Below are positions 18,208-43,994 of a stretch of DNA of 64,000 nucleotides, in pieces; position 1 is the first letter of the stretch; each line of letters opens with the position of its first letter. The notes beneath the pieces are model-generated. The model made no database searches. It saw only the letters and a list, made by a program, of their open reading frames with translations, and was not told the origin of the DNA. Origin of the DNA: Actinomycetota bacterium (GTDB taxonomy: Bacteria > Actinomycetota > AC-67); the NCBI GenBank assembly GCA_041658565.1, contig JBAZZY010000010.1, positions 11,881-75,880 on the forward strand. Direction: 5' to 3'. Both the position numbers and the translations under genes were made by a program.

Positions 18208-20679
18208 GTGCGTCGATTCATTTGCTTGTCCGCGCTTCTCACGTGCGCGCTGGTGTCGTTCGTTACCATTCCCGCGCGCGCATTGTCGCTGACGACTGTC
18301 GTCGTCACTTTCGACACCCGGCCGACCGCCGACATGCTCGCCGAGGTCTCCGGTGTCGCCGTTGCCGTCCACGGGTTCAAGCATCTGCCGGCCGCGGTCG
18401 CCGTCGTGGCGCCGGGCGACGCAGGCCTGCTGGCGAACCTGCCGAGCGTGCGCCGCGTGTATCCGAACCGGGCCTTCACGTACCTGCTGCGGCAATCGAC
18501 GCGCACGGTCCGAGCAGACCAGGCATGGGACCTCGGGTACAACGGCGCGGGAATCGGGGTGGCGGTAATCGACGCCGGCGTCGATGGGTCGCGTCCCGAT
18601 CTTTGCGCCGCGCCGCAATTCTGCACCGGCACGGCCGTCAAGACCGTGCAGAACGTGAAGTTCGTCGGACGCCAGGACCTCGGCGTGGATCCGGTGTTGG
18701 TCCTTGAGGACCAGATAAACACCGACACGTCTTCCGGACACGGTTCCCACGTTGCCGGGATCGTCGGCTCCTGGGGCGTCTCCAGCGCCTACGAAGACGG
18801 CAAGTACCGCGGCGTCGCGTGGGGCGCGGACATCATCGGGCTCGGAACCGGTGAAGTCGCCACCGTCGACAACGTTCTCGCAGCCTACGACTGGGTCATC
18901 GCACACAGAGACGAGTACAACATCCGGGTCATCAACAACTCGTGGGGCCCGGGCGCCGGCGCACCCTTCGACCCCGAGGATCCGGTCCAGCGCGCAACGA
19001 CGGCCGCGCACGACGCGGGGATCGCCGTCGTTTTCGCGGCCGGCAACGAAGGCCCCACCACCGACACTCTCAATGCGTTCTCGGCGAACCCGGATGCGAT
19101 TTCAGTCGCGGCCGGGATGAAGGGCGGCCAGATCGCGTTCTTCTCCTCGCGCGGCGTGCCCGGCAGTTCCTTCTGGCACCCGACGGTCACCGCACCCGGG
19201 TACTTCATCGCCTCGGTCCGTGCCTCGACGGGCTTCTACGGCGACGTCGCCGACGCAACTGCGGGACCCAACCCGGATCTCGTGACCCCGCCGGACGACG
19301 TCTACTACGCGACATCCAGCGGCACGTCCATGGCGGCACCCCACGTCGCCGGCATCGTCGCGCTGATGCAGCAGGCTTCGTTCCAGAGTCGCGGCGCCTA
19401 CCTCACTCCCGACCAAATCAAGAACATCCTGCAGAACACCGCGGTTTCGAACGACCCGGCGCGCGGTTCCGGCGGTCTTCCCAACTACCAGCGGTACACC
19501 ATGGGAGCCGGCTACGCGGATGCGCTTGCCGCCACGACCGCGGCAGCTGCGGGCACGATGACTTCGGCATACAACCCACACACCGTCTACGACGTCCGGA
19601 CCTTCTCCGGCGACATCGGACCGTCGACGGTGTTCGGGGTGTCGCAATCCGTCACCTCGACCTTCCAGGTCAACGCCGGCGCGATCTCACTGGACGCGAT
19701 GATCGACTGGTCGCAGAAGGCGAACGGCCTCGATTTGGAGCTATACAACCCGTCGGGTGCGCTCGCGCACTCCACGTTCCTTCAGTGCAACCCCGACGCA
19801 GAGCCGAACGGCTTCTCGTGGTTCTGCACCCAAACCGCGAACCAGCGCATCGTGATCACGGCACCGGCTCCCGGCACGTGGACGGCCGTCGCACGCGGAA
19901 CGATCTCGGCCGTAGACACGGTCAGGGGCACGTGGTCCGCGGTCTACCCCGACACCACCACACTCCCACCCGCCCCGGCGCCGGCGTCGATCACAGTCGC
20001 TGCCTCGTCACCACCGGCGAGCACGACCGGTCAGAGCGCCGCGGGTCAAAGCGTCGCGTTCGTGGCCACCGTGCACGACGCGGCCGGCAATGCGCTGCCG
20101 AACGCACCGGTCGCATGGACGAGTTCGGGTGTGGGCCGAATCGAGTTTGGGGAGACCACGACGCACATCGACGGGACTGCCGACGCGTCTGCGCGAAGCG
20201 ACGTTGCCGGTAGCCAGACGATCACGGCATCCTCCGGGGAAGCAAGGGACTCGGCGAACCTCACGTGGATCGGCGTGACGTTGCCCGGCACCACGAGCAC
20301 GCCCGGCCGAGCGTCGGGCGGCGGTTGGATCCCCGGCGCCTCGTCACCCAAGAACACGTTTGGGTTCTGGTCCGAATACCGCGCCGAATGGACCGGCCCC
20401 CAAGGGGAAGTCTCGTTTAACGACCACGCCGATACAAAGGTGAAGGCGGCCGGCGTGAACCGACTCGAAATCACGGGGAGCACGGCAACGGTAACCGGCA
20501 CGGCGACCGTCAACGGCAGTTCGGGTTATCGCTTCCAGCTCACCATCGCCGACGACGGGACACCCGGTCACGGCAGCGACACATTCGACCTCCGGCTGAC
20601 CGCCGACCTGGACCCGCTGTGGACGTACCGGGCCACGGGAACGCTCCGGGGAGGCAATATCGTCGTGACGCGCGACTAG
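18208..20679 (+). CDS. Secreted subtilisin-like serine protease (S8) with C-terminal Ig-like/beta-sandwich extension
   Basis: Signal peptide. Catalytic triad contexts VAVIDAGVD, HGSHVAGIVGS, GTSMAAPHVAGIVALM. About 350-aa C-terminal extension. Confidence 0.85.
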   Translation: MRRFICLSALLTCALVSFVTIPARALSLTTVVVTFDTRPTADMLAEVSGVAVAVHGFKHLPAAVAVVAPGDAGLLANLPSVRRVYPNRAFTYLLRQSTRTVRADQAWDLGYNGAGIGVAVIDAGVDGSRPDLCAAPQFCTGTAVKTVQNVKFVGRQDLGVDPVLVLEDQINTDTSSGHGSHVAGIVGSWGVSSAYEDGKYRGVAWGADIIGLGTGEVATVDNVLAAYDWVIAHRDEYNIRVINNSWGPGAGAPFDPEDPVQRATTAAHDAGIAVVFAAGNEGPTTDTLNAFSANPDAISVAAGMKGGQIAFFSSRGVPGSSFWHPTVTAPGYFIASVRASTGFYGDVADATAGPNPDLVTPPDDVYYATSSGTSMAAPHVAGIVALMQQASFQSRGAYLTPDQIKNILQNTAVSNDPARGSGGLPNYQRYTMGAGYADALAATTAAAAGTMTSAYNPHTVYDVRTFSGDIGPSTVFGVSQSVTSTFQVNAGAISLDAMIDWSQKANGLDLELYNPSGALAHSTFLQCNPDAEPNGFSWFCTQTANQRIVITAPAPGTWTAVARGTISAVDTVRGTWSAVYPDTTTLPPAPAPASITVAASSPPASTTGQSAAGQSVAFVATVHDAAGNALPNAPVAWTSSGVGRIEFGETTTHIDGTADASARSDVAGSQTITASSGEARDSANLTWIGVTLPGTTSTPGRASGGGWIPGASSPKNTFGFWSEYRAEWTGPQGEVSFNDHADTKVKAAGVNRLEITGSTATVTGTATVNGSSGYRFQLTIADDGTPGHGSDTFDLRLTADLDPLWTYRATGTLRGGNIVVTRD

Positions 20680-20729: not shown

Positions 20730-23303
20730 TCATCTCGCGGCGGGACCGGCGAGCGCGAGGTGCGGGGCGTATGTCCGGTCCAAACGGGCGTCACTGTGCA
20801 CACGCGCCGGCCAGGTCTGGTCCAGAACCGCAGCGATGTGCTCGGCGGCGAGCGGCTTGCTCAGCAAGTAGCCCTGCGCGACGTCGCATCCCAGGGCGCT
20901 CAGTCGGTTCCACGCAAGCTCGGTCTCGACTCCCTCCGCAACGACGCGAAGACCGAGCGTCCGTCCAAGGTCGATGATCGAACGCACGATAACGGCGTCG
21001 TCCTCGTCGGCCGTCATGCCCATGACGAACGAGCGATCGATCTTGATCTCGTCTACAGGCAGTCGCTGCAGATACGACAGAGAGGAATACCCGGTGCCGA
21101 AGTCGTCGATCGAGATCGCAATCCCCATCGAACTCAACCGGGACAGGGTGCCGATCGATCGCGCCGGGTCGGTCATGATGTTCGTCTCGGTGACCTCGAG
21201 AGTGAGCGACGACGGATGAACTCCGGCGTCACGCAGGCGTCGCGCGATCTGATCCGGGAGCCCTTGATCCAGCAGCGTTCGTGCGGAGAGGTTGACGGCC
21301 ACACTCAGGTGGCGCCCGGCCGCCGACCACTTGGCGGATTGGCGAAGCGCGGCATCGAGCACCCAGTAGGTCAACGGACCGATCAAGCCGGTCTGCTCGG
21401 CGAGCGGAATGAAGTCGTCCGGCGAGACGAGGCCGCGACGGGGATGATTCCAGCGCACGAGCGCTTCGACGCCGGTGACCACGCCGCTGTCGATATCGGC
21501 CTTCGGCTGGAAGAACAGCATCAGCTCGTCCGATTCGATCGCATGCCGCAACTCGCCGACCAGGGCCAGCCGCGCGGGACTGTAGGGGTCGCGCTCGGGC
21601 GCGTAGATCTGCGCGCCGGCCTGCTCGCCCTTCGCGAAGTACATGGCGACGTCGGCGCGCTGCATCAAGGTGTCGGAGTCCTCACCGTGTTCGGGATACA
21701 GCGCGATGCCGATGCTCGCGCCGACGGTGATCGTAACCTCCTGCAGAACGATGGGCTGCTCGAGTGTGGCGCGCACGGCCTCGGCGACGCGCAGAGCGTC
21801 GACGGTGTCGGAAAGCCTCGGCAGGACGACGGCGAACTCGTCGCCTCCCAGCCTGGCAACGGTGTCACCTTCTCGCAACGAACCACGCAACCGGCGCGCC
21901 ATCTCCTGCAACAGCAGATCTCCGTTGTGATGGCCGAGTGTGTCGTTGACTTCCTTGAAACGATCCAGATCGATCATCATGATGGCGACTTGGTCTCCGG
22001 CGCGCGCGGCGGCCAGGACCGCTTGCCGCGTGCGATCACGGAGCAGCGTTCGATTAGGCAGGCCGGTCAGCGCGTCGTGAAGGGCTTGATGCTGGTTCTG
22101 CTCTGCCTGGATCTTGAGCCGATCCACGAGTTCGCCGTTGTGAACCATCGCGCTCGCGTGATTGGCAAACGTTTCGAAGAGCTTCAGGTCCTCGTGGTCG
22201 AAAGTGCCGACGTCCCCGAGGCGGTTGCGGACCATGATCGTTCCGGCAACCTTGTTCGCGACGTACAGCGGCGCCACCATCGCGTCGCGGATCCCCTGCG
22301 ACTCGAAATGCTCACGGAGGCGCTCGTTCTTGATCGGGCGAGGTATCAGCACCGCCTGCGCTTCCGACGCAACACGCGCCCACACGCCCTCGCCGGGATC
22401 AGGCCGCGCGGGCTCGGTAACGACATCGCCACCGTCGGCCCGGACGTACGTGCTCGTCGCTTCATGCTCCTCGTTCGCAAAGGCGACAACCTCCGCCGAT
22501 TCCGCATTGAACATCGCGCAGAGTTGCCGCAGTATCTCGGGGATGATGGAGCCCTCTTCGAGGGGCTTCTCGACGATGCGCGTCGAGTCGTAGAGAAGCT
22601 CGAGACTTCCGTACCGCTGCCGGGTCGTGACGTACGCGCGGTAGGTGACGATCATGACGGCGGCCGCGATCGTCAGCAGCCATGCCGCGCGCGAGTCGTG
22701 CCAGATCACCGTTGCAGCCAGAAGCGCAAGGCCGGTATTGGTCGCGGTGGCAACCAGCCCGAGTCCCGGGAGACCGCGAAGGGCATGCCACACCAATCGT
22801 CCTTCGAGCAGCGAAACCGCGAGAGTGATCATCAATGCCGACGCGAGATCGATCGTGAGCGTGGCGCCGAGCGCGGCCGCCCACCACCGGGGCCCGAGGG
22901 GCTCGGAGGCACTCGCGAAGCACTGGAAGACGACGACGGCCAGCGTGGTACCGATCGCGTACTGGCTCAGGTTGAAGACGAACTTGACCAGCGGTTGCCT
23001 GCGGTGGATCGCGAGCGCCACCGCTGATCCGGTGACGAGGGCCAAGATCAGCTCCGACGGCGGAGCGAAGAGCAATCCCAGGACGATCGGCAATTCGCTG
23101 ATCGAGAACGAGTGCGTGTCCCTGCGGACGTGCACATGCACGGCGAAGATCTCAGCCAGGCAGAACATCGCCGCAAGGAGCGTCCAGTGGATCCGGACGG
23201 GGGCACCGACCGGCGCCAACCCGCGGGTAACCCACACGTAGCCGGCCGCGGCAAGACAAGCCAAGAGTACGTTCAGGATCCAGACCCGGCGCGAACCGCA
23301 CAT
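20730..23303 (-). CDS. Membrane-bound GGDEF-EAL protein (diguanylate cyclase/phosphodiesterase) with N-terminal polytopic sensor domain and GAF-like linker
   Basis: Six or more TM helices. RLGGDEFAVVLP (GGDEF). EALVRW…DDFGTGYSSL (EAL). The N-terminal TM domain contains RRQPLVKFVFNLSQYAIG, homologous to the histidine kinase at 37795..39693. Confidence 0.85.
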   Translation of the reverse strand: MCGSRRVWILNVLLACLAAAGYVWVTRGLAPVGAPVRIHWTLLAAMFCLAEIFAVHVHVRRDTHSFSISELPIVLGLLFAPPSELILALVTGSAVALAIHRRQPLVKFVFNLSQYAIGTTLAVVVFQCFASASEPLGPRWWAAALGATLTIDLASALMITLAVSLLEGRLVWHALRGLPGLGLVATATNTGLALLAATVIWHDSRAAWLLTIAAAVMIVTYRAYVTTRQRYGSLELLYDSTRIVEKPLEEGSIIPEILRQLCAMFNAESAEVVAFANEEHEATSTYVRADGGDVVTEPARPDPGEGVWARVASEAQAVLIPRPIKNERLREHFESQGIRDAMVAPLYVANKVAGTIMVRNRLGDVGTFDHEDLKLFETFANHASAMVHNGELVDRLKIQAEQNQHQALHDALTGLPNRTLLRDRTRQAVLAAARAGDQVAIMMIDLDRFKEVNDTLGHHNGDLLLQEMARRLRGSLREGDTVARLGGDEFAVVLPRLSDTVDALRVAEAVRATLEQPIVLQEVTITVGASIGIALYPEHGEDSDTLMQRADVAMYFAKGEQAGAQIYAPERDPYSPARLALVGELRHAIESDELMLFFQPKADIDSGVVTGVEALVRWNHPRRGLVSPDDFIPLAEQTGLIGPLTYWVLDAALRQSAKWSAAGRHLSVAVNLSARTLLDQGLPDQIARRLRDAGVHPSSLTLEVTETNIMTDPARSIGTLSRLSSMGIAISIDDFGTGYSSLSYLQRLPVDEIKIDRSFVMGMTADEDDAVIVRSIIDLGRTLGLRVVAEGVETELAWNRLSALGCDVAQGYLLSKPLAAEHIAAVLDQTWPARVHSDARLDRTYAPHLALAGPAAR

Positions 23304-23306
23304 AAC

Positions 23307-25055
23307 CTAATCCCAGCTCCTCGCGGACCAGCCCTCGTCGGACCACGACCGGCCCGACCAGGATCTGCCCGACCAGGATCTGCCCGACCAGGACCTGCCG
23401 GACCAGGTTCGGCCGTCCCAGGTGTTGTCCGACCACGTGCGGCCCGACCACGTGCGGCCGGCGAAATCGTTCGCCGTCCAAGTCGCTCCCGCCCAGTCGA
23501 CGGTGCGCCAGACGCCACCCACCCACGTGACGCCTCGCAGGAACTGGTCGGTCCACGCCACGGCATCCCAGCCGACGCCGAAGAGGTCCTGCTCCCCGGT
23601 CAGTGCGACCGTGCCGTCCACGATGCGCAGTGAGCCGCGCGCCGCCTCAAGCGACCCAAGTCCCGTCGCGGGAACAAAGAGCTGCTTGGTCAGCAGCGCC
23701 GAAGGCGTCGTCTTGCCGAGCGCGACCTTGAGGTCGAGTGCACCCGCGCCTTGCGCCGCAACGGTTGCGCTCGGGATCTTCGTCGCCGATTGCCTCAATA
23801 GGGCCTTGATTTGATCCGGCGAGATGGTGGGCCGCTGTTGGAGGATCAAGGCTGCGGCGCCGGAAACGACGGCGGTCGCTTGTGAAGATCCGCTGCCTCG
23901 GAAGAACCGCCCACCGACGCGCGCAGATGGGAAGAGCTGGTCGATGTCCGATGCCGGGACGCGCAGTGACGCGACCGAAGTCCCCGGAGCAACGACGTCG
24001 GGGTTGCGCACACCGTCTCCCCGGCTGGACCACGACGGGATCGTCGCGTCGCTCGTGCCGTACAGCCCGCCCGGATCGGTGTACCCACCCACCGCGATGA
24101 CGTAAGGATCAATGGCCGGGTTCGTCATCCCGATGCTCTCGCCGCCGCGATTGCCGGCAGACACCACGACGACCAGACCCTTGCGCCAGGCAACTTCGGC
24201 CGCATAGGACAGCGGGTCAAGAAGGTAGCTCTGCAGACCGTAGCTTCCGAACGAAAGGTTCAAGACTCGGATGTTCAGACCGTCGCTCCTTGTGTGGTTG
24301 ACGACCCAGTCGATGCCGGCGATCACTTGAGAAACGTCCGTCCACCCTTGCGCGTCGGCCACCTTCACGCTCACAACGCGCGCGTCGGGAGCGATGCCGA
24401 GGAAGCGACTGGTGTTGCCGGCCTTCACCGCCGTGGCCGAATCGCGTCCGGCGATGATGCCCGCCATGTGCGTGCCGTGACCGAACGCATCTTTGTTGCG
24501 TAGGTTCGGCGCCTGCGACTCCACGGAGAAGTCCGGACCGTAGACAACCTTTCCGGCGTCGTTGAGGCCTTGCACGTTCGCAACGCCGGAGTCGATCAAC
24601 GCAACGTCGACTCCTTTGCCCGTGAAACCCTTGGCCCAGTAGCTGCTCGCGCCGGTGACTTTCTGCGCGATCGTGTAAAGGGAATATGGATCGGTGCCGG
24701 CGTCGTACCCGTTGGTCGCGGCGGCAAGCTGCACACGCCCGTTGCGGGTGACCGCCAAGATCCCGGACTCGGCGCTGAGACGATCCAACGACGCGCGCGG
24801 CACCTCGGCGACGAGGCCGCCGATAATGCCGATGCGGCGGACGGTGATGCCGCCTTCGCGCTCAACCGCGCGCTCGGCAGCCTGGGGCGATCCCGGAAGC
24901 GTACGCACGATCACCGAGACCATGTCCACGGTCGACGACGATCCGGACCGCGTGTCGCCCCAGGAACTGATCGCCAAGACGGCGACAATCAGTGAGGCTG
25001 CAACCGCGGACCTGCGACTCAGGCGCCTCTTCCCCATCCGTGCGTTCGCGTCCAT
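23307..25055 (-). CDS. Secreted S8 subtilase with I9 propeptide and C-terminal (G-R-S/T-W-S)n tryptophan-pentapeptide repeat tail
   Basis: Signal peptide MGKRRLSRRSAVAASLIVAVLA. Triad contexts VALIDSGV, HGTHMAGIIAG, GSSQATAVVSGAAALI. C-terminus GRTWSGRTWSDNTWDGRTWSGRSWSGRSWSGRSWSGRSWSDEGWSARSWD. The ORF extends to 25151. Confidence 0.8.
   Translation of the reverse strand: MDANARMGKRRLSRRSAVAASLIVAVLAISSWGDTRSGSSSTVDMVSVIVRTLPGSPQAAERAVEREGGITVRRIGIIGGLVAEVPRASLDRLSAESGILAVTRNGRVQLAAATNGYDAGTDPYSLYTIAQKVTGASSYWAKGFTGKGVDVALIDSGVANVQGLNDAGKVVYGPDFSVESQAPNLRNKDAFGHGTHMAGIIAGRDSATAVKAGNTSRFLGIAPDARVVSVKVADAQGWTDVSQVIAGIDWVVNHTRSDGLNIRVLNLSFGSYGLQSYLLDPLSYAAEVAWRKGLVVVVSAGNRGGESIGMTNPAIDPYVIAVGGYTDPGGLYGTSDATIPSWSSRGDGVRNPDVVAPGTSVASLRVPASDIDQLFPSARVGGRFFRGSGSSQATAVVSGAAALILQQRPTISPDQIKALLRQSATKIPSATVAAQGAGALDLKVALGKTTPSALLTKQLFVPATGLGSLEAARGSLRIVDGTVALTGEQDLFGVGWDAVAWTDQFLRGVTWVGGVWRTVDWAGATWTANDFAGRTWSGRTWSDNTWDGRTWSGRSWSGRSWSGRSWSGRSWSDEGWSARSWD
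23310..23459 (-). repeat. 15-bp-period tandem repeat encoding 10 Trp-pentapeptides (GR[ST]WS) at the subtilase C-terminus
   Basis: …cccgaccaggatctgcccgaccaggatctgcccgaccaggacctgccggaccagg… Strict 15-nt periodicity. Confidence 0.85.
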
Positions 25056-25202
25056 AGCAATGCCTCCGCGTCGTTCTCGTACGTCTATGTACGGAGCCCA
25101 CCAATCCCGGAAACATGGCCTCCCGCCGTCATTCCACGCGCGCGCAGCCACTACGCGAGCTATCGATCTCTCTAACTACGCCGGCGTGATCGCTCCATGC
25201 TT

Positions 25203-36205: not shown

Positions 36206-37750
36206 CTACTCCCACTCGATGGTCGCCGGAGGCTTCGACGTGATGTCGTACGCCACGCGGTTGACGCCCGGAACTTCGGCGATGATCCTCGACGCCATTC
36301 GCTCCAACAGGTCGTAGGGCAGACGAGCCCAGTCGGCCGTCATCGCGTCTTCGCTCGTGACCGCCCGGATGACGATCGGGTGCGCGTACGAGCGTTCGTC
36401 ACCCATGACGCCGACGGTACGCACATCGGGCAAGATCGCAAAAGACTGCCACAACTCGCGCATCAGTCCCGCTTTGCGAACCTCGTCGAGCACGACCGCG
36501 TCTGCTCCGCGCAAGATCTCCAGCTTCTCCGCGTCCACATCACCAATCACGCGAATCGCAAGGCCCGGCCCCGGAAACGGTTGCCGCCAGACGATCTCGT
36601 CGGGAAGCCCCATCTCCTCACCGATCGCCCGAACTTCGTCCTTGAACAAATTGCGCAAAGGCTCGACGAGTTCGAAGTCCATGTCCTCGGGGAGACCGCC
36701 GACGTTGTGGTGGCTCTTGATCTTGGCTGCGTCGCGCGTGCCGGACTCGATGATGTCGGGGTACAGCGTCCCTTGGACCAAGAAGCGCGCGCCGGCGAGA
36801 TCGGTGCGAGCGACTTCCTCGAACACCCGGATGAACTCCTCGCCGATCGCCTTACGTTTGCGCTCGGGGTCACTGACGCCGGCCAGCCGCCCGAGGAAAC
36901 GATCCTGCGCCTTCACGTGGATCAAGTTGATTCGGAAGAGGCGCCGGAAGGTCTCCTCCACCTGTTCGGCCTCACCAGCCCGCAGGAGTCCGTGGTCGAC
37001 GAAGATGCACGTGAGGTTGTCGCCGACGGCCTTGTGCACCAGCACCGCGGCCACCGAAGAATCCACGCCGCCGGAGAGCCCGCATACGATGCGCTCACTC
37101 CCCACGCGTTCGCGAACCTCGCGCACGGCTTCTTCGATGATCGAGACGCGAGTCCACACCGGCCGCGCGTCGCAGGCTTCGTAGAGGAAGTTCTTGAGCA
37201 GATCGAGTCCGCGCGGCGTGTGCGCAACCTCAGGGTGGAACTGAACTCCGTACAACCCCCGCGCGCGATCTTCGAACCCCGCCACGGGCGAGGACTCAGA
37301 CGAAGCCGTCACCTGGAAGCCCTCGGGCGCGCGCACGACGACATCGCCGTGACTCATCCAAACCGTCTGCTGCTCCGGCAACCCCTTGAACAGCGAAGGC
37401 GTACCGAGCACCTGCAGGTCGGTCTTGCCGTACTCACGGGTACCGGTCTTGGCGACCTCGCCACCGAGGGCCTTGGCCATGGCCTGCTGCCCGTAGCAGA
37501 TACCAAGCACAGGAATGCCCAGCTCAAAGAACTCGGGGTTCACGGCCGGAGCACCCGCCGAATAGACGCTCGCCGGACCGCCCGACAAGATCAGCCCGCG
37601 CGGCGCGCGGCGGCGGATCTCATCGACGGGAACGTCGTGAGGAAGGATCTCGGAGTAAACCTTGCACTCGCGAACGCGGCGCGCGATCAGTTGTGCGTAC
37701 TGCGCGCCGTAATCGATCACGAGAACGGAATCAAAGGAGGATGCGTCCAC
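36206..37750 (-). CDS. guaA: GMP synthase (glutamine-hydrolysing)
   Basis: GATase N-terminus (LVIDYGAQY…ICYGQQ) and PP-loop SGGVDSSV. Confidence 0.95.
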
Positions 37751-37794: not shown

Positions 37795-39693
37795 CTAGCC
37801 GGCGGGGTCGGACTCCGCCCGCTCCGGCGGCACGGCCGGCCGAGGCGGCTGAGCCGGCAAGGCTTCAGCCGGGTCTCCCGGCGCGCGCGGGATCTGGGGG
37901 AGGTCGGAACGCCGGCGCTGCGGAAGCGCCGGCGCAGCGGCCGAAACCGGCAGCAACACGGTGAACGTGCTCCCACTGCCCAACTCACTTTCCAACTGGA
38001 CCGACCCGCCCATCGCCAGCGCAAGTTGTCGCACGATGAACAGCCCGAGGCCTGCTCCGCCGGTCTCCATGCGCAAAGGGTCCTCGAGACGCTTGAATTT
38101 CTCGAAGATCTCTTCAGTGCGGTCCGGCGGAATGCCCCGACCCTCGTCGCGCACTCTGATCTGTATCCACTTCCCCGTCTGCTCAGCCTCGACGTCGACC
38201 GGAGCCCCATCGTCGGAGAACTTCACGGCGTTAGAGACCAGGTTGGCAACGACCTGCTCGATTCGAATCGCATCACCCAGGACCGTGAGGTCCTCCGCCG
38301 CCTGAAAGCGGAACTCCCGCGAGGGGTGCGAGACGCGGAACGACCGCAGCGCGCGCTCGACCACCGGAACGACCGCAACCGGTTGCCGATTGACCTCCGG
38401 CATCCGCCGCTCGTCGGTGTTCGCGATCCGCGACGCCAGCAGCATGTCCTCAACCAGCCGCGCCATGTGATCGGTCCGCTCCAGAATGGACTGCACGGCT
38501 TCGCGGCGACGCTCGCTCGGCAAATCGTCCATGCGGCGAAGCAACAACGACGCGTATCCCTTGATCGGCGTGAGCGGAGTCCGCAACTCGTGCGAGACCG
38601 TCGAGAAGAAGTCGTCCTTCAACCGATCGACTTCGCGCTGCCGGGTCACGTCGGTGACGACCAAGACATCAAAGGTCAGCTCTCCGCGCTCGTCGAACCC
38701 AGGTCCGTGTTGAACGCGCAGCCAACGCGGAGTCCCGTCGGCAGCGATGATCTCGATGTCGACCGGCTCGCCCTCAGCGGAAACGTCGATCGTAAGCCAC
38801 TGGCCGAAGACACCCTTGCCTCGCAGCAGATAGGACAGCGCTTTGCCGGTCGCTTCCTCGCGCGACACGCCGGTCGCGCGCTCCATCGAAGGGCTCCACA
38901 AAAGGACGGCCCCCGACGCATCGGCAAGCACGATCCCTTCGCTCGAATGCTCCAGAATCCGGCCGAGCTTGGTGGACTCCTCCTCCATCTTGCGCGACAG
39001 TTCCTTCTCTTTGACCCAGCCTCCAAATGCCAGGTGCAGAGCAAGCGTCGGGGCGAGAACGGCCGGCAACAACTCGGGCCGCGTCAGATACAGGGACACC
39101 GCCACCATCCCGACCGCCGAGTTGCCAAGACCGAGGGAGAACGACATCCCCCCCTCCTCCGCGAGAACCTTCCGCAGCGGACGATCGGTCGTCGCGGCGA
39201 TGATGGCCGAGATCGTCACCAAGTTGCCGGCCGTGAAGATCGCCATCCCGGCCACGATCGCAAGCAACCCGGCCGTCGAATCGAAGTCCCCACCGCCGAA
39301 GGTGTGGTACAGCCCGATGGCCGGGACGATCCCGACCGCGTACTGACCCAGGTTGAAGATGAACTTAACTAGTGGCCGGCGCCGAATCACGAGCGCCACG
39401 GCGAGCCCGCCGATCGAAACCAACGCCGCCATCGAGGCCGGCAGCAGCACGATGTCGGCAACGACCGCCAGTTCGAACAACGTGAGCATCTCGGCCGACC
39501 GGCCGTGGCGATAGCGGATCGCGACGAGTTCCGACACTGCCGTCAAGCCGAGCAGAAGCCCGGCCTGATGCGCCGATGTCCCCGAGAACGACGGCGGATC
39601 GGCGAGACACGCGGCCGCCAAGGCAACGGCCCCGCCGATCGACACTGCCCAGATGAGAAGAGTTGTGGCTTGTAGCTGTCTCCCCCGAGTCAC
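37795..39693 (-). CDS. Membrane sensor histidine kinase: polytopic N-terminal domain (paralogous to the GGDEF-EAL protein N-terminus), PAS-like, HisKA, HATPase
   Basis: [18 protein letters not shown] in the TM domain. H-box [19 protein letters not shown] boxes. Pro-rich C-terminal tail. Confidence 0.85.
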
Positions 39694-39702
39694 GAGTGCA
39701 GC

Positions 39703-41379
39703 CTACCCCCAGCCGTCTGCATCCCAGCGACGGGCGTCCCAGCGGCGTGCGTCCCACTGGCCGGCATCCCAACGCCTGGCGTCCCAGCGGCGTGCATCCC
39801 AGCGGCGTGCGTCCCAACGGCGCGCGTCCCAACGGCGCGCGTCCCAGCGGCGTGCGTCCCAACGCCTGGCCGCCCACTGCCTGGCCGCCCACTGGCGCGC
39901 GGCCCACTGCCTGGCCGCCCACTGGCGCGCGGCCCACTGCCTGGCCGCCCACTGGCGCGCGTCCCAATCGTTCAAGTCCCAACGACGGGCGTCCCAGCGA
40001 CGCGCTGCCCACTCCTGCGCCCCGTCGGCTCGGCTTCGGACCCACTCCGCATCGAGCCCGCGCGGCATCCACGGCTTGTCGAGTTCGCCGAGATCGGGAA
40101 CCGGCGGAAGCTCCGGCATTTCTCCATCGAAGAGGACTGCTTCGTTCGCGTCGACCTCGCCGGCTCCGACCGAGTCGGGGTCGCCGTCGGACACGTCCGC
40201 TGCCGTCGCCTGCATTAACGCCTTGACTTCGTCCGGCGACAGTTCAGGCTTTGCTTGCAGGATGAGCGCAGCCGCACCGGCGGCAGCCGCCGAGGACATG
40301 CTCGTCCCCGAGCCCCTGAAGTATGCGTCGTCCACGCGTGCCGACGGGTACTCCTCGTCGATCGTCGAGCCCGGGGCGCGAAGTGAGACGAGGTGCTCGC
40401 CCGGCGCAGCGATGTCGGGCTTCTCGTCGCCCCATCGCGTCGGACCGCGGCCTGAGTATTCCGAAACCGTGTCGTCGCCCTGGGAACCGGTCGCGTGGTC
40501 GTCAACCGAACCGGCCGTCAACAGCACCGGGTCTTCGCCCGGAGAAGCAATCGTCTTCGCGTCGGGACCCTCGTTGCCGGAGGGAACGACAACTACGATC
40601 CCGCGCGCCCACAACTCGCGCAACGCGTTGGTCAGCGGATCGAGTTCCGGCGGCAACGGCGACTCGGAGTGCAGCGCGAGCAACACGACGCCCACGTTGA
40701 ACCGGTTGGCCGAGACGTCTACGAGCTGGATCCCCGCCAGCACCTGTCCGAGACTCGTCATCCCCGAGCGATCCGCGACCTTGACCGACATCAAGTTCGC
40801 CTCGGGAGCAACCCCGACGTACTTCCCGTCGGACGATGCCCCGTTCCCGGCGATGATGCCCGCCTGGAACGTGCCGTGTCCGTAGGTGTCTTCGAGACTC
40901 CGCTCTTTGGTGAAGTTGGCGCGCGCAACCACGCGGCCACGAAGGTCGGGGACGTCGGCGATGCCTGTATCGATCAGCGCCACCGTGACACCGCGGCCGG
41001 TGATCTCCCGACTCCACAGTGCCGGCGCGCCGACGGCTTGCGGGTACGCCGAGACGAGTGCGTCGCCGTACGATGCGCTCTGCAAGTGCAGGGTTCGGTC
41101 GGGAACCACAATGGCGCGCGCGGACAGTTCGTCCATGCGAGATTCGGGCACGCGCGCAGAGACGCCGCCGATGATTGGCAGAACGTTGTCGATCTCGCCG
41201 CGGGCTCCGAGAGTCAGATCAACCGCGGACGTAGCGTCGCGGCTCATCACGATCACGGGGACGTAGCGGCCAAGAGCCTCCACAGCCGGCGCTCCGCCAA
41301 GAACCAGCAGCAACGCCACAACCATCGTCGTCGCCAGACGGCGAACTCGATGCTGCTCCGCAAACACGAGCGTCGTCAT
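39703..41379 (-). CDS. Secreted S8 subtilase with I9 propeptide and about 21-unit C-terminal (A-R-R/Q-W-D/A)n tryptophan-pentapeptide repeat tail
   Basis: Signal peptide. Triad contexts VALIDTGIADV, YGHGTFQAGIIAG, GTSMSSAAAAGAAALI. C-terminal about 105 aa: …RRWDARRWDLNDWDARQWAARQWAARQWAAR…RRWDARRWDARRWD…. Start overlaps the stop of the upstream receiver gene by 4 bp. Confidence 0.85.
   Translation of the reverse strand: MTTLVFAEQHRVRRLATTMVVALLLVLGGAPAVEALGRYVPVIVMSRDATSAVDLTLGARGEIDNVLPIIGGVSARVPESRMDELSARAIVVPDRTLHLQSASYGDALVSAYPQAVGAPALWSREITGRGVTVALIDTGIADVPDLRGRVVARANFTKERSLEDTYGHGTFQAGIIAGNGASSDGKYVGVAPEANLMSVKVADRSGMTSLGQVLAGIQLVDVSANRFNVGVVLLALHSESPLPPELDPLTNALRELWARGIVVVVPSGNEGPDAKTIASPGEDPVLLTAGSVDDHATGSQGDDTVSEYSGRGPTRWGDEKPDIAAPGEHLVSLRAPGSTIDEEYPSARVDDAYFRGSGTSMSSAAAAGAAALILQAKPELSPDEVKALMQATAADVSDGDPDSVGAGEVDANEAVLFDGEMPELPPVPDLGELDKPWMPRGLDAEWVRSRADGAQEWAARRWDARRWDLNDWDARQWAARQWAARQWAARQWAARQWAARQWAARRWDARRWDARRWDARRWDARRWDARRWDARRWDAGQWDARRWDARRWDADGWG
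39706..40020 (-). repeat. 15-bp-period tandem repeat (about 21 units) encoding the Trp-pentapeptide tail
   Basis: …gcgtcccagcggcgtgcgtcccaacggcgcgcgtcccaacggcgcgcgtcccagcggcg… Strict 15-nt period with unit variants (cagcggcgtgcgtcc / cactgcctggccgcc / cactggcgcgcggcc). Confidence 0.9.
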
Positions 41380-41756
41380 GCCGCCACCCCCGACGTCAGA
41401 TCGTGGACAACGTTGATCAGGTCTTCGGGCTCGAACGGCTTATTCATGTAGTAGTGACAGCCGGCGCTCCAGCCCTTCCATGTGGAGTCGGGATCGTCGA
41501 GCGCGGTCAGCATCACGACGGGGAGTTCTCGAGTGCTTTCCTGGGCGCGGATCTTCTCGAGTACAGCGAACCCGTCCATGCCCGGCATCATCACGTCGAG
41601 CACAACAAGGCTCGGAGTGCGAACACGGATGCGCTCGAGCGCGGTGGCACCATCGCCCACCGCCTCGACCTCATAACCTTCCATCTCCAGCGTGTGCTGG
41701 AGCAGTGTTCGGGTGGCGAGGTTGTCCTCCACGACCAAGATCCTCGGACTACTCAT
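41376..41756 (-). CDS. Single-domain response regulator (CheY-like receiver, no output domain)
   Basis: MSSPRILVVEDN…LVVLDVMMPGMDGFAVL…VVMLTA…KPF has the receiver aspartate and lysine contexts. Confidence 0.8.
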   Translation of the reverse strand: MSSPRILVVEDNLATRTLLQHTLEMEGYEVEAVGDGATALERIRVRTPSLVVLDVMMPGMDGFAVLEKIRAQESTRELPVVMLTALDDPDSTWKGWSAGCHYYMNKPFEPEDLINVVHDLTSGVAA

Positions 41757-41925
41757 CGTCGTCCCCTGTGTCCGCCAAGACCGGCAAAAGCTGCCTGTCA
41801 CTGGTGTATATATCGGCGCTCTTCGCGAATCCCTCCAGACCAGGAGCGGTGCTAAATGAGCGACACGAAATGACTAGAAGAGCGGGGACTTCGGTCGGTT
41901 TCGGACGAAATCGCGGAAGCGAGGA

Positions 41926-42825
41926 CTACTCCGAGCGAAGCAGCGCAAGGTCCGCGAGGTCGTAGCGATCGAAGTCGTCGGGCGGCCCGCCGGAAAGAAG
42001 GGCACCGATCGATATGTCTTCTATCGCCCAGAACATCACCGACGTCTGATATCGCGAGTGGTATCGGTGGTCGGGATCCTCATGCGCGTACTTGCTGGTG
42101 TAGCCGAGGTTCACCAGCGCGAGCAAGTGCCCGACCTCGTGCGTGAGCACCGACCGCTCGATCGCCCCCGGCTGCACGAGTGAGGTGGAGGCCGAAGAAA
42201 TCTGGTCGGCGAAGATCGCCGCTCCCGAGGCTTCGTACGCCACTCCGAGAGTCGAGTCATCCCCCTGCAAGGTTCCGTTCAAGTACACGATCCACATCGT
42301 TGCCGTCTGCGCCGACGAGTGGATCGTTCGGTACCGGCGCTCGAGGCGCCCGATCTCTTCAATGGAGTATGCATCCGACGTCGGCGAGAACTCCGGGCCG
42401 ACGCGAAGCGTGATTCCACCCGGCTTGTCGGCCTCCCGGCGCAAGATCGAAAGGACGTGATCCAACGCGGCCTGCGAAGGGCGGCTGCCGCTGGTGTAGG
42501 CGACCTGGATCTCCAATGCGCGCGCCGGCGACGCGCGCAGGTACGACCGCGCCATCTCACCCACCCCGCCGGAGTCCTGGTAGACGCGGCTGGAAGGCGT
42601 CGAAGACGCCACTCCGGTGCCAGTGCCGCGCGCCGCAGTGGGAGACGGACCGACGCGCGCCGGCGATGCCGCGGACGACCCGCCGGAGCGACGGGGTGAC
42701 GGAACACCCGAACCGTAACCAGCCGACGGCCCGGTCGGAGCCGCGCACGCCGTCAGAACCAACGCCGCTACGGCCGCAAGGCCGAGTGTCCGAAAGACCC
42801 GGGCGCGCGCCCCGATGACGCTCAT
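41926..42825 (-). CDS. Lipoprotein, putative zinc metallopeptidase (HExxH)
   Basis: Lipobox LVLTACAAP. HEVGHLLAL zincin motif with downstream acidic residues. Ser/Pro-rich linker. Confidence 0.5.
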   Translation of the reverse strand: MSVIGARARVFRTLGLAAVAALVLTACAAPTGPSAGYGSGVPSPRRSGGSSAASPARVGPSPTAARGTGTGVASSTPSSRVYQDSGGVGEMARSYLRASPARALEIQVAYTSGSRPSQAALDHVLSILRREADKPGGITLRVGPEFSPTSDAYSIEEIGRLERRYRTIHSSAQTATMWIVYLNGTLQGDDSTLGVAYEASGAAIFADQISSASTSLVQPGAIERSVLTHEVGHLLALVNLGYTSKYAHEDPDHRYHSRYQTSVMFWAIEDISIGALLSGGPPDDFDRYDLADLALLRSE

Positions 42826-43994
42826 CCCATTCCGACGCCCTGGGCCCGCTGGTAGGTCTTGCCCTCAGACATGAACGACGCGCTCACAGCAACCTCCACC
42901 CGCTGAAAATCGCGGATGTTCTGGTAGCCGCAGTCGGCCATGCTCGTCTGCAAGGCGCCGAACAGGTTCATGGTCCCGTCGTTGACGGGAGCGGGTCCAA
43001 GCAGGATCTCACGAAGCGTTCCGGCAATACGCGTCTTGACGCGGGTGCCGCGAGGAAGTTCGGGGTGGAACGTGGCCATGCCCCAGTGGTAGCCGCGGCC
43101 GGGAGCCTCCGAGGCGCGCGTCAACGGCGAGCCGATCATCACAGCGTCGGCTCCGCATGCGATCGCCTTCGAGATGTCGCCGCCGGTGCGCATTCCCCCG
43201 TCGGCGATGACGTGCACGTACCGACCGGTTTCCTGCAGATGGCGCGTGCGCGCGCCCGCAGCATCGGCGATCGCCGTCGCCTGCGGAACGCCGATCCCAA
43301 GAACGCCGCGAGTCGTGCACGCGGCGCCGGGACCGACGCCTACCAAGACGCCGACGGCGCCGGTGCGCATCAAGTGCAGCGCGGTCTCGTAAGACGCGCA
43401 GCCTCCGACGATGACCGGCAGTTCGTACGACGCGATGAACTCCTTCAAGTTCAACGGCTCCGTACGCGTCGAGACGTGCTCGGCCGACACCACCGTTCCC
43501 TGGATCACCAGGATGTCCAACTCGGCGTCCAGGGCGATCTTGTGGAACCGCTCGACGCGCTGGGGCGTAAGCGACGCCGCAGCGACGACCCCGGCATCCT
43601 TGATCTGGCGAATACGCTTGTGGATCAACTCATCCTTGATCGGTGCGGCGTATATCTCTTGCATGCGGTGAGTCGCCTCGGCATCCGGGAGGGTCGCGAT
43701 CTCCTCGTAGATCGGATCCGGGTCCTCGTACCGAGACCACAGGCCCTCGAGGTTGAGCACCGCAAGACCACCGAGCTGGCCGATCTCGATCGCGGTCGCG
43801 GGAGACACGACCGCATCCATTGCGGACGCAAGCAACGGAAGCGAGAACTTGAAGGCATCGATCTCCCAAGAGGGATCGACGTCGTCCCGGTCGCGCGTCC
43901 GCCGTGAGGGAACGATCGAGATCTCGTCGAATCCGTACGCGCGCCGCGCCGTCTTGCCTATCCCAAGTTCAACTTCCGCCATGCCGTCCTCCAA
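42822..43994 (-). CDS. guaB3: IMP dehydrogenase-family protein lacking CBS pair (GuaB3-like)
   Basis: FDEISIVPSRRTRDRDDV…IVGGCASYETALHLMRTGA…IADGGMRTGGDISKAIACGADAVMIGS TIM-barrel IMPDH motifs. About 390 aa without CBS insertion. Confidence 0.85.
   Translation of the reverse strand: MEDGMAEVELGIGKTARRAYGFDEISIVPSRRTRDRDDVDPSWEIDAFKFSLPLLASAMDAVVSPATAIEIGQLGGLAVLNLEGLWSRYEDPDPIYEEIATLPDAEATHRMQEIYAAPIKDELIHKRIRQIKDAGVVAAASLTPQRVERFHKIALDAELDILVIQGTVVSAEHVSTRTEPLNLKEFIASYELPVIVGGCASYETALHLMRTGAVGVLVGVGPGAACTTRGVLGIGVPQATAIADAAGARTRHLQETGRYVHVIADGGMRTGGDISKAIACGADAVMIGSPLTRASEAPGRGYHWGMATFHPELPRGTRVKTRIAGTLREILLGPAPVNDGTMNLFGALQTSMADCGYQNIRDFQRVEVAVSASFMSEGKTYQRAQGVGMG

Follow-up and report, generated by a model that had tools for sequence, protein, structure and literature searches.

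A tryptophan pentapeptide tail on S8 subtilases genetically coupled to membrane sensors

The 64,000-nucleotide stretch of an Actinomycetota genome analyzed here (the window; GenBank assembly GCA_041658565.1, contig JBAZZY010000010.1, positions 11,881 to 75,880) carries on its minus strand a gene for an S8 subtilase, protease 1, whose C-terminal tail is an array of pentapeptides with a tryptophan at every fifth residue (array 1). As sequence comparisons show, this tail is a conserved, selected module of a very large and uncharacterized protease clade. The gene for the Trp-tail protease is genetically coupled, on the same strand, to a gene for an all-membrane sensor with either a cyclic di-GMP (c-di-GMP) or a histidine-kinase output. 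What is new here is a repeat module on a known type of enzyme, in a new and conserved protease-sensor gene pair. In the literature, no paper describing the Trp tail or the protease-sensor pairing was found, and nothing relevant on Trp-rich repeats of subtilases or on a subtilase-GGDEF operon in Actinobacteria. The elements of the first locus are as follows.

23307..25055, minus strand: S8 subtilase gene with the Trp tail (protease 1), starting at an ATG and encoding 582 residues; a GTG at 25151 would give 614 residues
about 24744-24923, minus strand: I9-like propeptide of protease 1
23745-24620, minus strand: Peptidase_S8 domain of protease 1
24591-24593, 24477-24479, 24150-24152 and 23883-23885, minus strand: codons of the catalytic Asp, the His, the oxyanion Asn and the Ser, respectively
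23580..23672, minus strand: conserved linker (ATGLGSLEAARGS...LTGEQDLFG) from the catalytic domain to the array, defined by the consensus and the near-invariant columns of alignment A1
23579-23460, minus strand: eight degenerate pentapeptide units sharing the register of the regular ones (GVGWD, AVAWT, DQFLR, GVTWV, GGVWR, TVDWA, GATWT, ANDFA)
23310..23459, minus strand: ten regular Trp pentapeptide units (GRTWS x3, GRSWS x4, DNTWD, DEGWS, ARSWD), reaching the C-terminus
20730..23303, minus strand: sensor 1, with a MASE9-like membrane domain of seven to eight helices followed by GAF, GGDEF and EAL domains, 3 nt past the stop of protease 1

Read 5' to 3' on the minus strand, positions 23459..23310 translate into GRTWS, GRTWS, DNTWD, GRTWS, GRSWS, GRSWS, GRSWS, GRSWS, DEGWS and ARSWD, and the stop codon (23307-23309) comes right after the last of these units. 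Trp, encoded by TGG, occupies the fourth position in all ten; seven of them match G-R-S/T-W-S and the other three are variants. A preliminary description of this DNA had placed ten G-R-S/T-W-S units at 23310-23459. The array exists and seven units fit that formula, but its minus-strand orientation had been missed and it is longer than described, since the eight degenerate units extend it upstream in the same register. The full array has 18 units (23310-23579) with Trp in 16 of them. Two of the eight degenerate units have L or F where W is expected, and the Trp columns of the degenerate units are invariant or nearly so in alignment A1. By our own arithmetic, with Trp at about 1-2% of residues, the probability of finding Trp in register in 16 of 18 units is about 1e-27, and a chance origin of array 1 is excluded. 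A six-frame scan of the window for at least three Trp residues at period 5 returned only array 1 and the array at 39709-40011, and Tandem Repeats Finder reports a period of 15 over 23341-23459. As a separate observation, the Arg codons of the GRSWS units (23355-23401, minus strand) include AGG and AGA besides CGG in a sequence of 66% G+C, where AGA is expected to be rare.

The enzyme that carries array 1 is an ordinary member of the S8 family. It matches Peptidase_S8 with E=8e-44 and 150.5 bits against a cut-off of 21.8, and matches no other Pfam family above cut-off in a scan at E ≤ 1; NCBIfam returned sub-threshold protease families only. The Asp/His/Ser triad and the oxyanion Asn (D155, H193, S391 and N302) are invariant across 53 aligned sequences, and the best solved relative is the subtilase Tk-SP (3AFG, E=2e-33). 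The AlphaFold2 model of protease 1 (predicted template modeling score, pTM, 0.74) is confident for the I9-like propeptide and the catalytic domain. The ATG at 25055 is also the start used for P0001, a database protein 100% identical to protease 1. The N-terminus is basic and then hydrophobic, as in a putative export signal or anchor. Taken together, the domains, the triad, the propeptide and the N-terminal stretch suggest that protease 1 is a secreted subtilase zymogen with a Trp-repeat tail, its predicted layout being a signal peptide, the I9-like propeptide, the catalytic domain, a short linker and the Trp array. The linker motif also precedes Trp arrays in database fragments. A type VII secretion mycosin (TIGR03921) is the best NCBIfam match. 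This assignment, along with the idea that W-S-G recalls the WXG motif, was rejected because the score is about half the cut-off (135 bits against 278.75), an N-terminal export signal is present, the second clade of tails described below has mostly W-x-A, and the C-terminus is the Trp array itself, which lacks the hydrophobic helix of a mycosin-type membrane anchor. A third S8 gene in the window (18208-20679, plus strand), convergent with that of sensor 1, encodes a protease with PPC and Big_1 domains but without a Trp tail.

The second array of the window belongs to a second protease-sensor pair.

39703..41379, minus strand: paralogue 2, an S8 subtilase of 558 residues, 35% identical to protease 1
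39706..40020, minus strand: array 2, 21 units (ARRWD x11, ARQWA x6, plus variants), the C-terminal tail of paralogue 2
37795..39693, minus strand: sensor 2, a histidine kinase with MASE9, PAS, HisKA and HATPase domains, 9 nt past the stop of paralogue 2

Paralogue 2 scores 147.4 bits against Peptidase_S8 and likewise matches no other Pfam family above cut-off in the scan at E ≤ 1. In a BLAST comparison of the two proteases the tails align Trp on Trp and in register, so that the common period-5 architecture and Trp position pointed out in the preliminary description hold, with 35%-identical S8 paralogues as the hosts. Both proteases have large families. Protease 1 has more than 7000 database matches, the best 120 of which all have Trp arrays (11-25 units). 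For paralogue 2 there are more than 4000 matches, and about 117 of the best 120 have arrays. Over the best matches of both, array length ranges from 8 to 41 units. The unit number varies from protein to protein, and the tail normally ends 1-3 residues past the last Trp. No Pfam or NCBIfam model matches either tail in the scans of the two window proteases. Sampled at one genome per species, the family is present in Actinomycetota, Chloroflexota and Dormibacterota; its cultured carriers include Blastococcus, Geodermatophilus, Actinoplanes, Paractinoplanes, Dactylosporangium, Virgisporangium and Planosporangium.

The units fall into two consensus types. Clade 1 has W(96%)-S(68%)-G(81%)-x-S/T, of which GRSWS is the version in array 1, and clade 2 has W(98%)-[A/D/S]-[A/G/S]-R(72%)-x. 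Two positions of the unit are variable, in that they are uniform inside one protein and different between proteins (GQSWS, GNTWS, GKSWS, GMSWS, ANAWE, GHTWN and others). Departures from the usual gene and domain arrangement were also seen. Tail-bearing protease genes can stand in tandem, three in L048 (4071-9770), two in L010 (4050-7734) and two in L069 (65-4846), with a sensor gene after the last copy only in L010 and L069 and none in L048. In the homologue P0047 (L088, 4979-7771) an array of about 17 WSGNA units is internal and is followed by Big_7/Ig-like and further domains; a GAF-GGDEF-EAL gene still comes after it, with a 4-nt overlap.

Codon usage bears on the age of the units. The same amino-acid units are written in different codons, Arg in array 1 being encoded by CGC, CGA, CGG, AGG and AGA. 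When units are compared with each other within arrays, the proportion of synonymous differences (pS) is 0.56-0.66 and the ratio of nonsynonymous to synonymous proportions (pN/pS) is 0.3-0.5. By these values most units are old, with their residues under constraint. An 86%-identical orthologue of protease 1 has kept both the number and the order of the units, variant units included. Array 2 differs in one part: at 39872-39966 (minus strand) it contains a 30-base, two-unit block with 98% matches, and it has six ARQWA units where P0131, a protein 98% identical to paralogue 2 and two units shorter in its tail, has four. This is a recent gain or loss of two units, and a small part of array 2 is therefore recent. 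The earlier proposal that the arrays are old and maintained rather than recently expanded is thus supported by the paralogous hosts, the near-universal tails, the pN/pS values and the 86%-identical orthologue, and needs amendment only for the 30-bp block.

An alternative sees in the tail either low-complexity junk left by a recent tandem expansion or a DNA repeat spuriously translated. It can draw on this block, on the variable copy number of the block and on the translated (TGGNN)n microsatellites that make up 44 of the best 149 matches to a tail profile (see below). However, the DNA period of the array is 15 and not 5, the units differ synonymously and keep their residues, and the tail is found in essentially every family member across three phyla. 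Conservation and codon data refute this explanation, to which we assign a negligible probability. Of the signs of junk named in the preliminary description, the lack of other examples did not materialize, given the tails in 120 of 120 and about 117 of 120 best homologues.

The coupling to a sensor was examined in 80 genome loci, in which 74 Trp-tail protease genes had enough downstream sequence. A sensor gene follows directly in 59 of the 74 (45 GGDEF-EAL, 10 kinase, 3 GGDEF and 1 other), and several of the genes that lack one stand upstream of another copy in tandem protease arrays. Conversely, when 54 metagenome loci were selected solely by the sensor domain, 37 had a Trp array immediately upstream of it; among the loci without such an array, 12 were checked and all 12 had no S8 gene. 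The preliminary account of the arrays was incomplete in this respect, having missed that the tails belong to proteases genetically coupled to membrane sensors.

The N-terminal membrane domains of sensors 1 and 2 are homologous (E=2e-13). Against the MASE9 model PF20972 (cut-off 24.3 bits), sensor 2 is above the cut-off with 28.8 bits and sensor 1 below it with 18.1 bits. Sensor 1 has intact GGDEF and EAL motifs. Its membrane domain (22584-23303, minus strand; alignment A4) has short loops and no extracellular domain, and charged and polar residues (E51, H56, R60, R61, E70, R101, R102 and N111) are invariant or nearly so inside the predicted helices. The predicted inner loops are positive (mean +3.25) and the outer loops near neutral. 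The short loops and the intrahelical charges are in line with the literature, where MASE9 is viewed as an intramembrane sensor (bioRxiv 10.1101/2021.11.05.467447).

Trp pentapeptide arrays are not confined to subtilases. An index-free search with a tail profile across 1.84 billion representative proteins gave 3312 matches, and the best 149 were assigned to four classes.

68 of the best 149: proteins with a recognizable S8 domain
about 12 of the best 149: fragments of the Trp-tail protease family
44 of the best 149: artefacts, being translated (TGGNN)n pentanucleotide microsatellites (WCGVV, WSGLV, WNGME, WHGMA, WYGMV and others)
about 12 of the best 149: other bacterial secreted or surface proteins

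On this breakdown the Trp array is chiefly an S8 tail that also occurs in other extracellular proteins. The further (xxxWx)n tails whose existence the preliminary description had left to be checked are many, and their host domain is chiefly S8. Some of the non-S8 carriers have cadherin-like, Ig-like or InlB B-repeat domains, and others are Firmicute-like proteins. One Firmicute-like family (P0272, P0331, P0333, P0350 and P0371) has a W-[ENSQ]-G-x-[PSQ] array at the N-terminus, along with a signal peptide, and a Gly-rich membrane helix at the C-terminus; a Pfam scan of P0272, P0331, P0350 and P0371 gave no match. The microsatellite artefacts include P0305, P0318, P0268 and P0255. A tail-only search of a word-indexed protein database returned just 72 candidates and 10 short fragments, and is uninformative on other hosts, as low-complexity words seem not to be indexed there.

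The tail is probably non-globular, judging from structure prediction, the super-period analysis and comparison with the pentapeptide family. In full-length AlphaFold2 models of both paralogues, which are confident for propeptide and catalytic domain, the regular units have a predicted local distance difference test (pLDDT) score of about 30-50. In array 1, confident placement is limited to roughly the first four degenerate units, which pack on the body of the enzyme. Neither tail has a confident fold, and no right-handed quadrilateral beta-helix is seen in the models. Identity between units falls off smoothly as the lag grows from 1 to 8 units, and no three- or four-unit super-period stands out; classic pentapeptide repeats have no super-period either, so that this result does not decide the matter. 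The structural role once suggested for the arrays finds no support in these pLDDT values or in any Pfam or NCBIfam model.

A regular fold was nevertheless considered in the form of a beta-solenoid akin to the pentapeptide-repeat proteins, in which Trp would take the central, inward position and the tail would act as a rigid stalk or spacer, possibly of a new Trp-core class. The Qnr pentapeptide-repeat proteins are the sole solved structures matched by the tail profile, weakly (E=0.02-0.05), in an alignment where Trp coincides with the central Leu/Phe, and Ser and Gly with positions i+1 and i+2, respectively. P0397 contains a related FSGAA/WSGAA array whose match to the Pfam Pentapeptide models is borderline, and the array of P0047 stands between folded domains, as a spacer might. 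However, the Pentapeptide models do not match either window protease at E ≤ 1, and the tails depart from the A(D/N)LXX consensus: the center is Trp in 96-98% of units, and position i-2, which must be small in the known fold, is occupied by N/Q/S/G/T/K/R in clade 1 (mostly N/Q/K/R) and by R in 72% of clade-2 units. AlphaFold2 usually folds pentapeptide repeats well, yet gives pLDDT 30-50 here; four Trp per coil would, by our own structural reasoning, overfill the known fold; and the super-period analysis lends no support to distinct faces. We regard a solenoid as unlikely.

The preferred reading, held tentatively and at slightly less than an even chance, is that the tail is a multivalent Trp tether, which would keep the mature enzyme on the cell surface next to the sensor it is paired with. 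Once the protease has been exported and has lost its propeptide, the tail would act as a flexible, multivalent 'Trp Velcro' whose evenly spaced indole rings may bind the cell envelope, either at the membrane interface or at wall glycans. Individual Trp contacts would be weak, but 11-26 of them could together retain the mature enzyme at the surface, close to the co-expressed sensor, and in this way couple extracellular proteolysis to intracellular signaling. The signal could run either way, with the protease gating the sensor or the sensor holding and releasing the protease.

We infer the tether because the carriers of the array are of surface type, the protease has no other anchor, the tails are either favorable for interfacial partitioning or cationic, and there are precedents for Trp-rich repeats. 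All 120 arrays of clade 1 have a favorable Wimley-White interfacial sum (median about -17 kcal/mol). Those of clade 2 score close to zero but are cationic, with a median charge of +4. As for precedents, the Trp repeats of NANOG are number-dependent association modules (PMC5446312, PMC9106587), and a Trp-rich sheet in ESV1/LESV binds glucans (bioRxiv 10.1101/2023.06.09.544376).

Several observations weigh against the tether. About 20% of Trp-tail proteases lack a sensor and about 30% of sensors lack a protease. The export signal or anchor of protease 1 was judged by eye only, and the binding target of the tether is putative. Low pLDDT may reflect a fold new to AlphaFold2 and not flexibility, and the internal array of P0047, with Ig-like domains after it, suits a spacer as well as a tether. 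The net charge of the tail is not conserved (-10 to +18), which leaves no common electrostatic mode, and it shows no correlation with the predicted outer-loop charge of the sensor (rho -0.03, p=0.79, n=63). With a predicted cytoplasmic loop there was a weak correlation (p=0.005, uncorrected), which we discounted as probably being phylogenetic noise.

Instead of binding the envelope, the tails could bind each other. A NANOG-like, prion-like self-association domain would form protease oligomers or surface assemblies, and the placement of Trp at every fifth residue between S/N/Q/T/G, especially in clade 1, is compatible with it, as is the low confidence with which AlphaFold2 models the tail. How strongly NANOG dimerizes depends on its number of Trp residues, and beta-rich gel-like assemblies are formed (PMC5446312, PMC9106587). 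On the other side, the tail is not homologous to NANOG, and it is extracellular where NANOG is nuclear. Clade-2 tails are rich in Arg and Asp and not prion-like, and self-association alone leaves the link to a membrane sensor unexplained. We consider this explanation distinctly unlikely.

In another reading, the Trp array would itself be the input of the MASE9-type sensor, either as a ligand tethered at the membrane interface or as xxxxW pentapeptides cut behind each Trp. We rate this doubtful. If true, the gene pair would be a self-contained, protease-gated signaling module, widespread in Actinomycetota, Chloroflexota and Dormibacterota, with c-di-GMP or two-component outputs, in which GRSWS with GGDEF-EAL and ARRWD with the histidine kinase would be separate channels.

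The second of these forms makes the tail a polyprotein precursor, from which the protease would free pentapeptides such as SGRSW and DARRW for sensing by its neighbor. Subtilisins prefer large hydrophobic P1 residues, and the pentapeptide Phr signals of Bacillus are matured by subtilisin-family proteases. The units are homogeneous within a protein but not alike from one protein to another, nor in the two window paralogues, which have a sensor each, and the arrays stop 1-3 residues past the last Trp, all of which would suit a precursor. Such a polyprotein is harder to reconcile with the variant units interspersed in the arrays (DNTWD, DEGWS, LNDWD), with the degenerate state of the first eight units of array 1 or with the internal array of P0047. 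In addition, no peptide transporter was seen nearby, the sensor has no extracellular domain, and the cleavage is hypothetical. The precursor model therefore has a very small probability in our view. A Trp-crosslinked precursor of a ribosomally synthesized and post-translationally modified peptide, of the darobactin or streptide type, was rejected, as neither the window nor any of the related loci inspected has an adjacent radical-SAM gene.

The neighborhood of paralogue 2 and sensor 2 contains further genes.

41376..41801, minus strand: single-domain response regulator (REC), with a 4-nt overlap between its stop and the start of paralogue 2
41926-42825, minus strand: open reading frame of 299 residues with an N-terminal hydrophobic stretch and a HEVGH (zinc-protease-like) motif, no Pfam match
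42822-43994, minus strand: IMPDH-like gene, the upstream flank of the REC-S8-kinase operon
36206-37750, minus strand: guaA (GMP synthase), the other flank of the operon

A gene of similar size, also without a Pfam match, is found at the same site upstream of REC-S8-kinase in L084, L085 and L087. Both flanks are kept in L084 and L085, and the upstream IMPDH-like gene in L087. The clade-2 gene order shared by the related loci and the window is IMPDH-like, a gene of about 300 residues, REC, S8 and MASE9-PAS-kinase.

MASE-type membrane sensor domains are a frequent part of c-di-GMP enzymes and histidine kinases, yet for nearly all of these domains the signal is unknown. A MASE9-like domain tied genetically to a specific extracellular partner in three phyla provides a testable handle on the sensor input. 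The Trp tail represents a large unnamed repeat family of thousands of proteins, a bacterial counterpart, in pattern, of the NANOG repeat. Since cultured carriers exist (Blastococcus, Geodermatophilus, Actinoplanes and Dactylosporangium), experiments are feasible. The search also bears on database quality, in that many Trp-pentapeptide 'proteins' are translated microsatellites worth filtering out.

We have compared the protease, its sensor and its tail with known systems. Tk-SP from Thermococcus kodakarensis (PDB 3AFG) belongs to the same S8 family and likewise consists of a propeptide, a catalytic domain and a C-terminal add-on. In contrast to the Trp pentapeptide array, its add-on is a folded beta-jelly-roll domain. 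An extracytoplasmic protease beside a membrane GGDEF-EAL protein or a two-component system is known from LapG-LapD of Pseudomonas and MprAB-PepD of Mycobacterium. Of these, LapG is a cysteine-type and PepD an HtrA-type protease, and LapD has a periplasmic domain along with degenerate GGDEF/EAL motifs. The likeness is one of logic only; no components are shared, and neither system has a Trp array or a MASE9-type input domain. In place of the defining features of LapD-LapG, the pair described here has a serine protease of family S8, short outer loops, and intact GGDEF and EAL motifs.

Multivalent envelope binding through repeated aromatic residues is found in the GW and choline-binding repeats of Gram-positive surface proteins. 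The Trp-rich domain of ESV1/LESV in plants likewise uses repeated aromatics for multivalent binding of polysaccharides (bioRxiv 10.1101/2023.06.09.544376). All of these have longer, folded units with no sequence relation to the Trp tail, and the GW, choline-binding, LysM and SLH models of Pfam match neither protease at E ≤ 1. The pentapeptide-repeat proteins (PF00805; Qnr, MfpA) share with the tail a period of five and a central hydrophobic residue followed by Ser/Thr and Gly. They differ in having Leu/Phe in place of Trp at the center, and the tail has no small residue at i-2 and no Pfam match; they are cytoplasmic DNA mimics, unlike the exported Trp-tail protease. The Trp-repeat (WR) domain of NANOG resembles the tail in being a simple repeat with Trp at every fifth residue and small polar spacers, and it acts through the number of its Trp residues and is largely non-globular (PMC5446312, PMC9106587). 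NANOG, however, is a nuclear mammalian transcription factor with about 10 units, compared to 11-26 at the end of an exported bacterial protease, and the resemblance is one of pattern and not of homology. The closest analogues of the tail are thus the Trp repeat of NANOG and the pentapeptide-repeat proteins, neither of them by homology.

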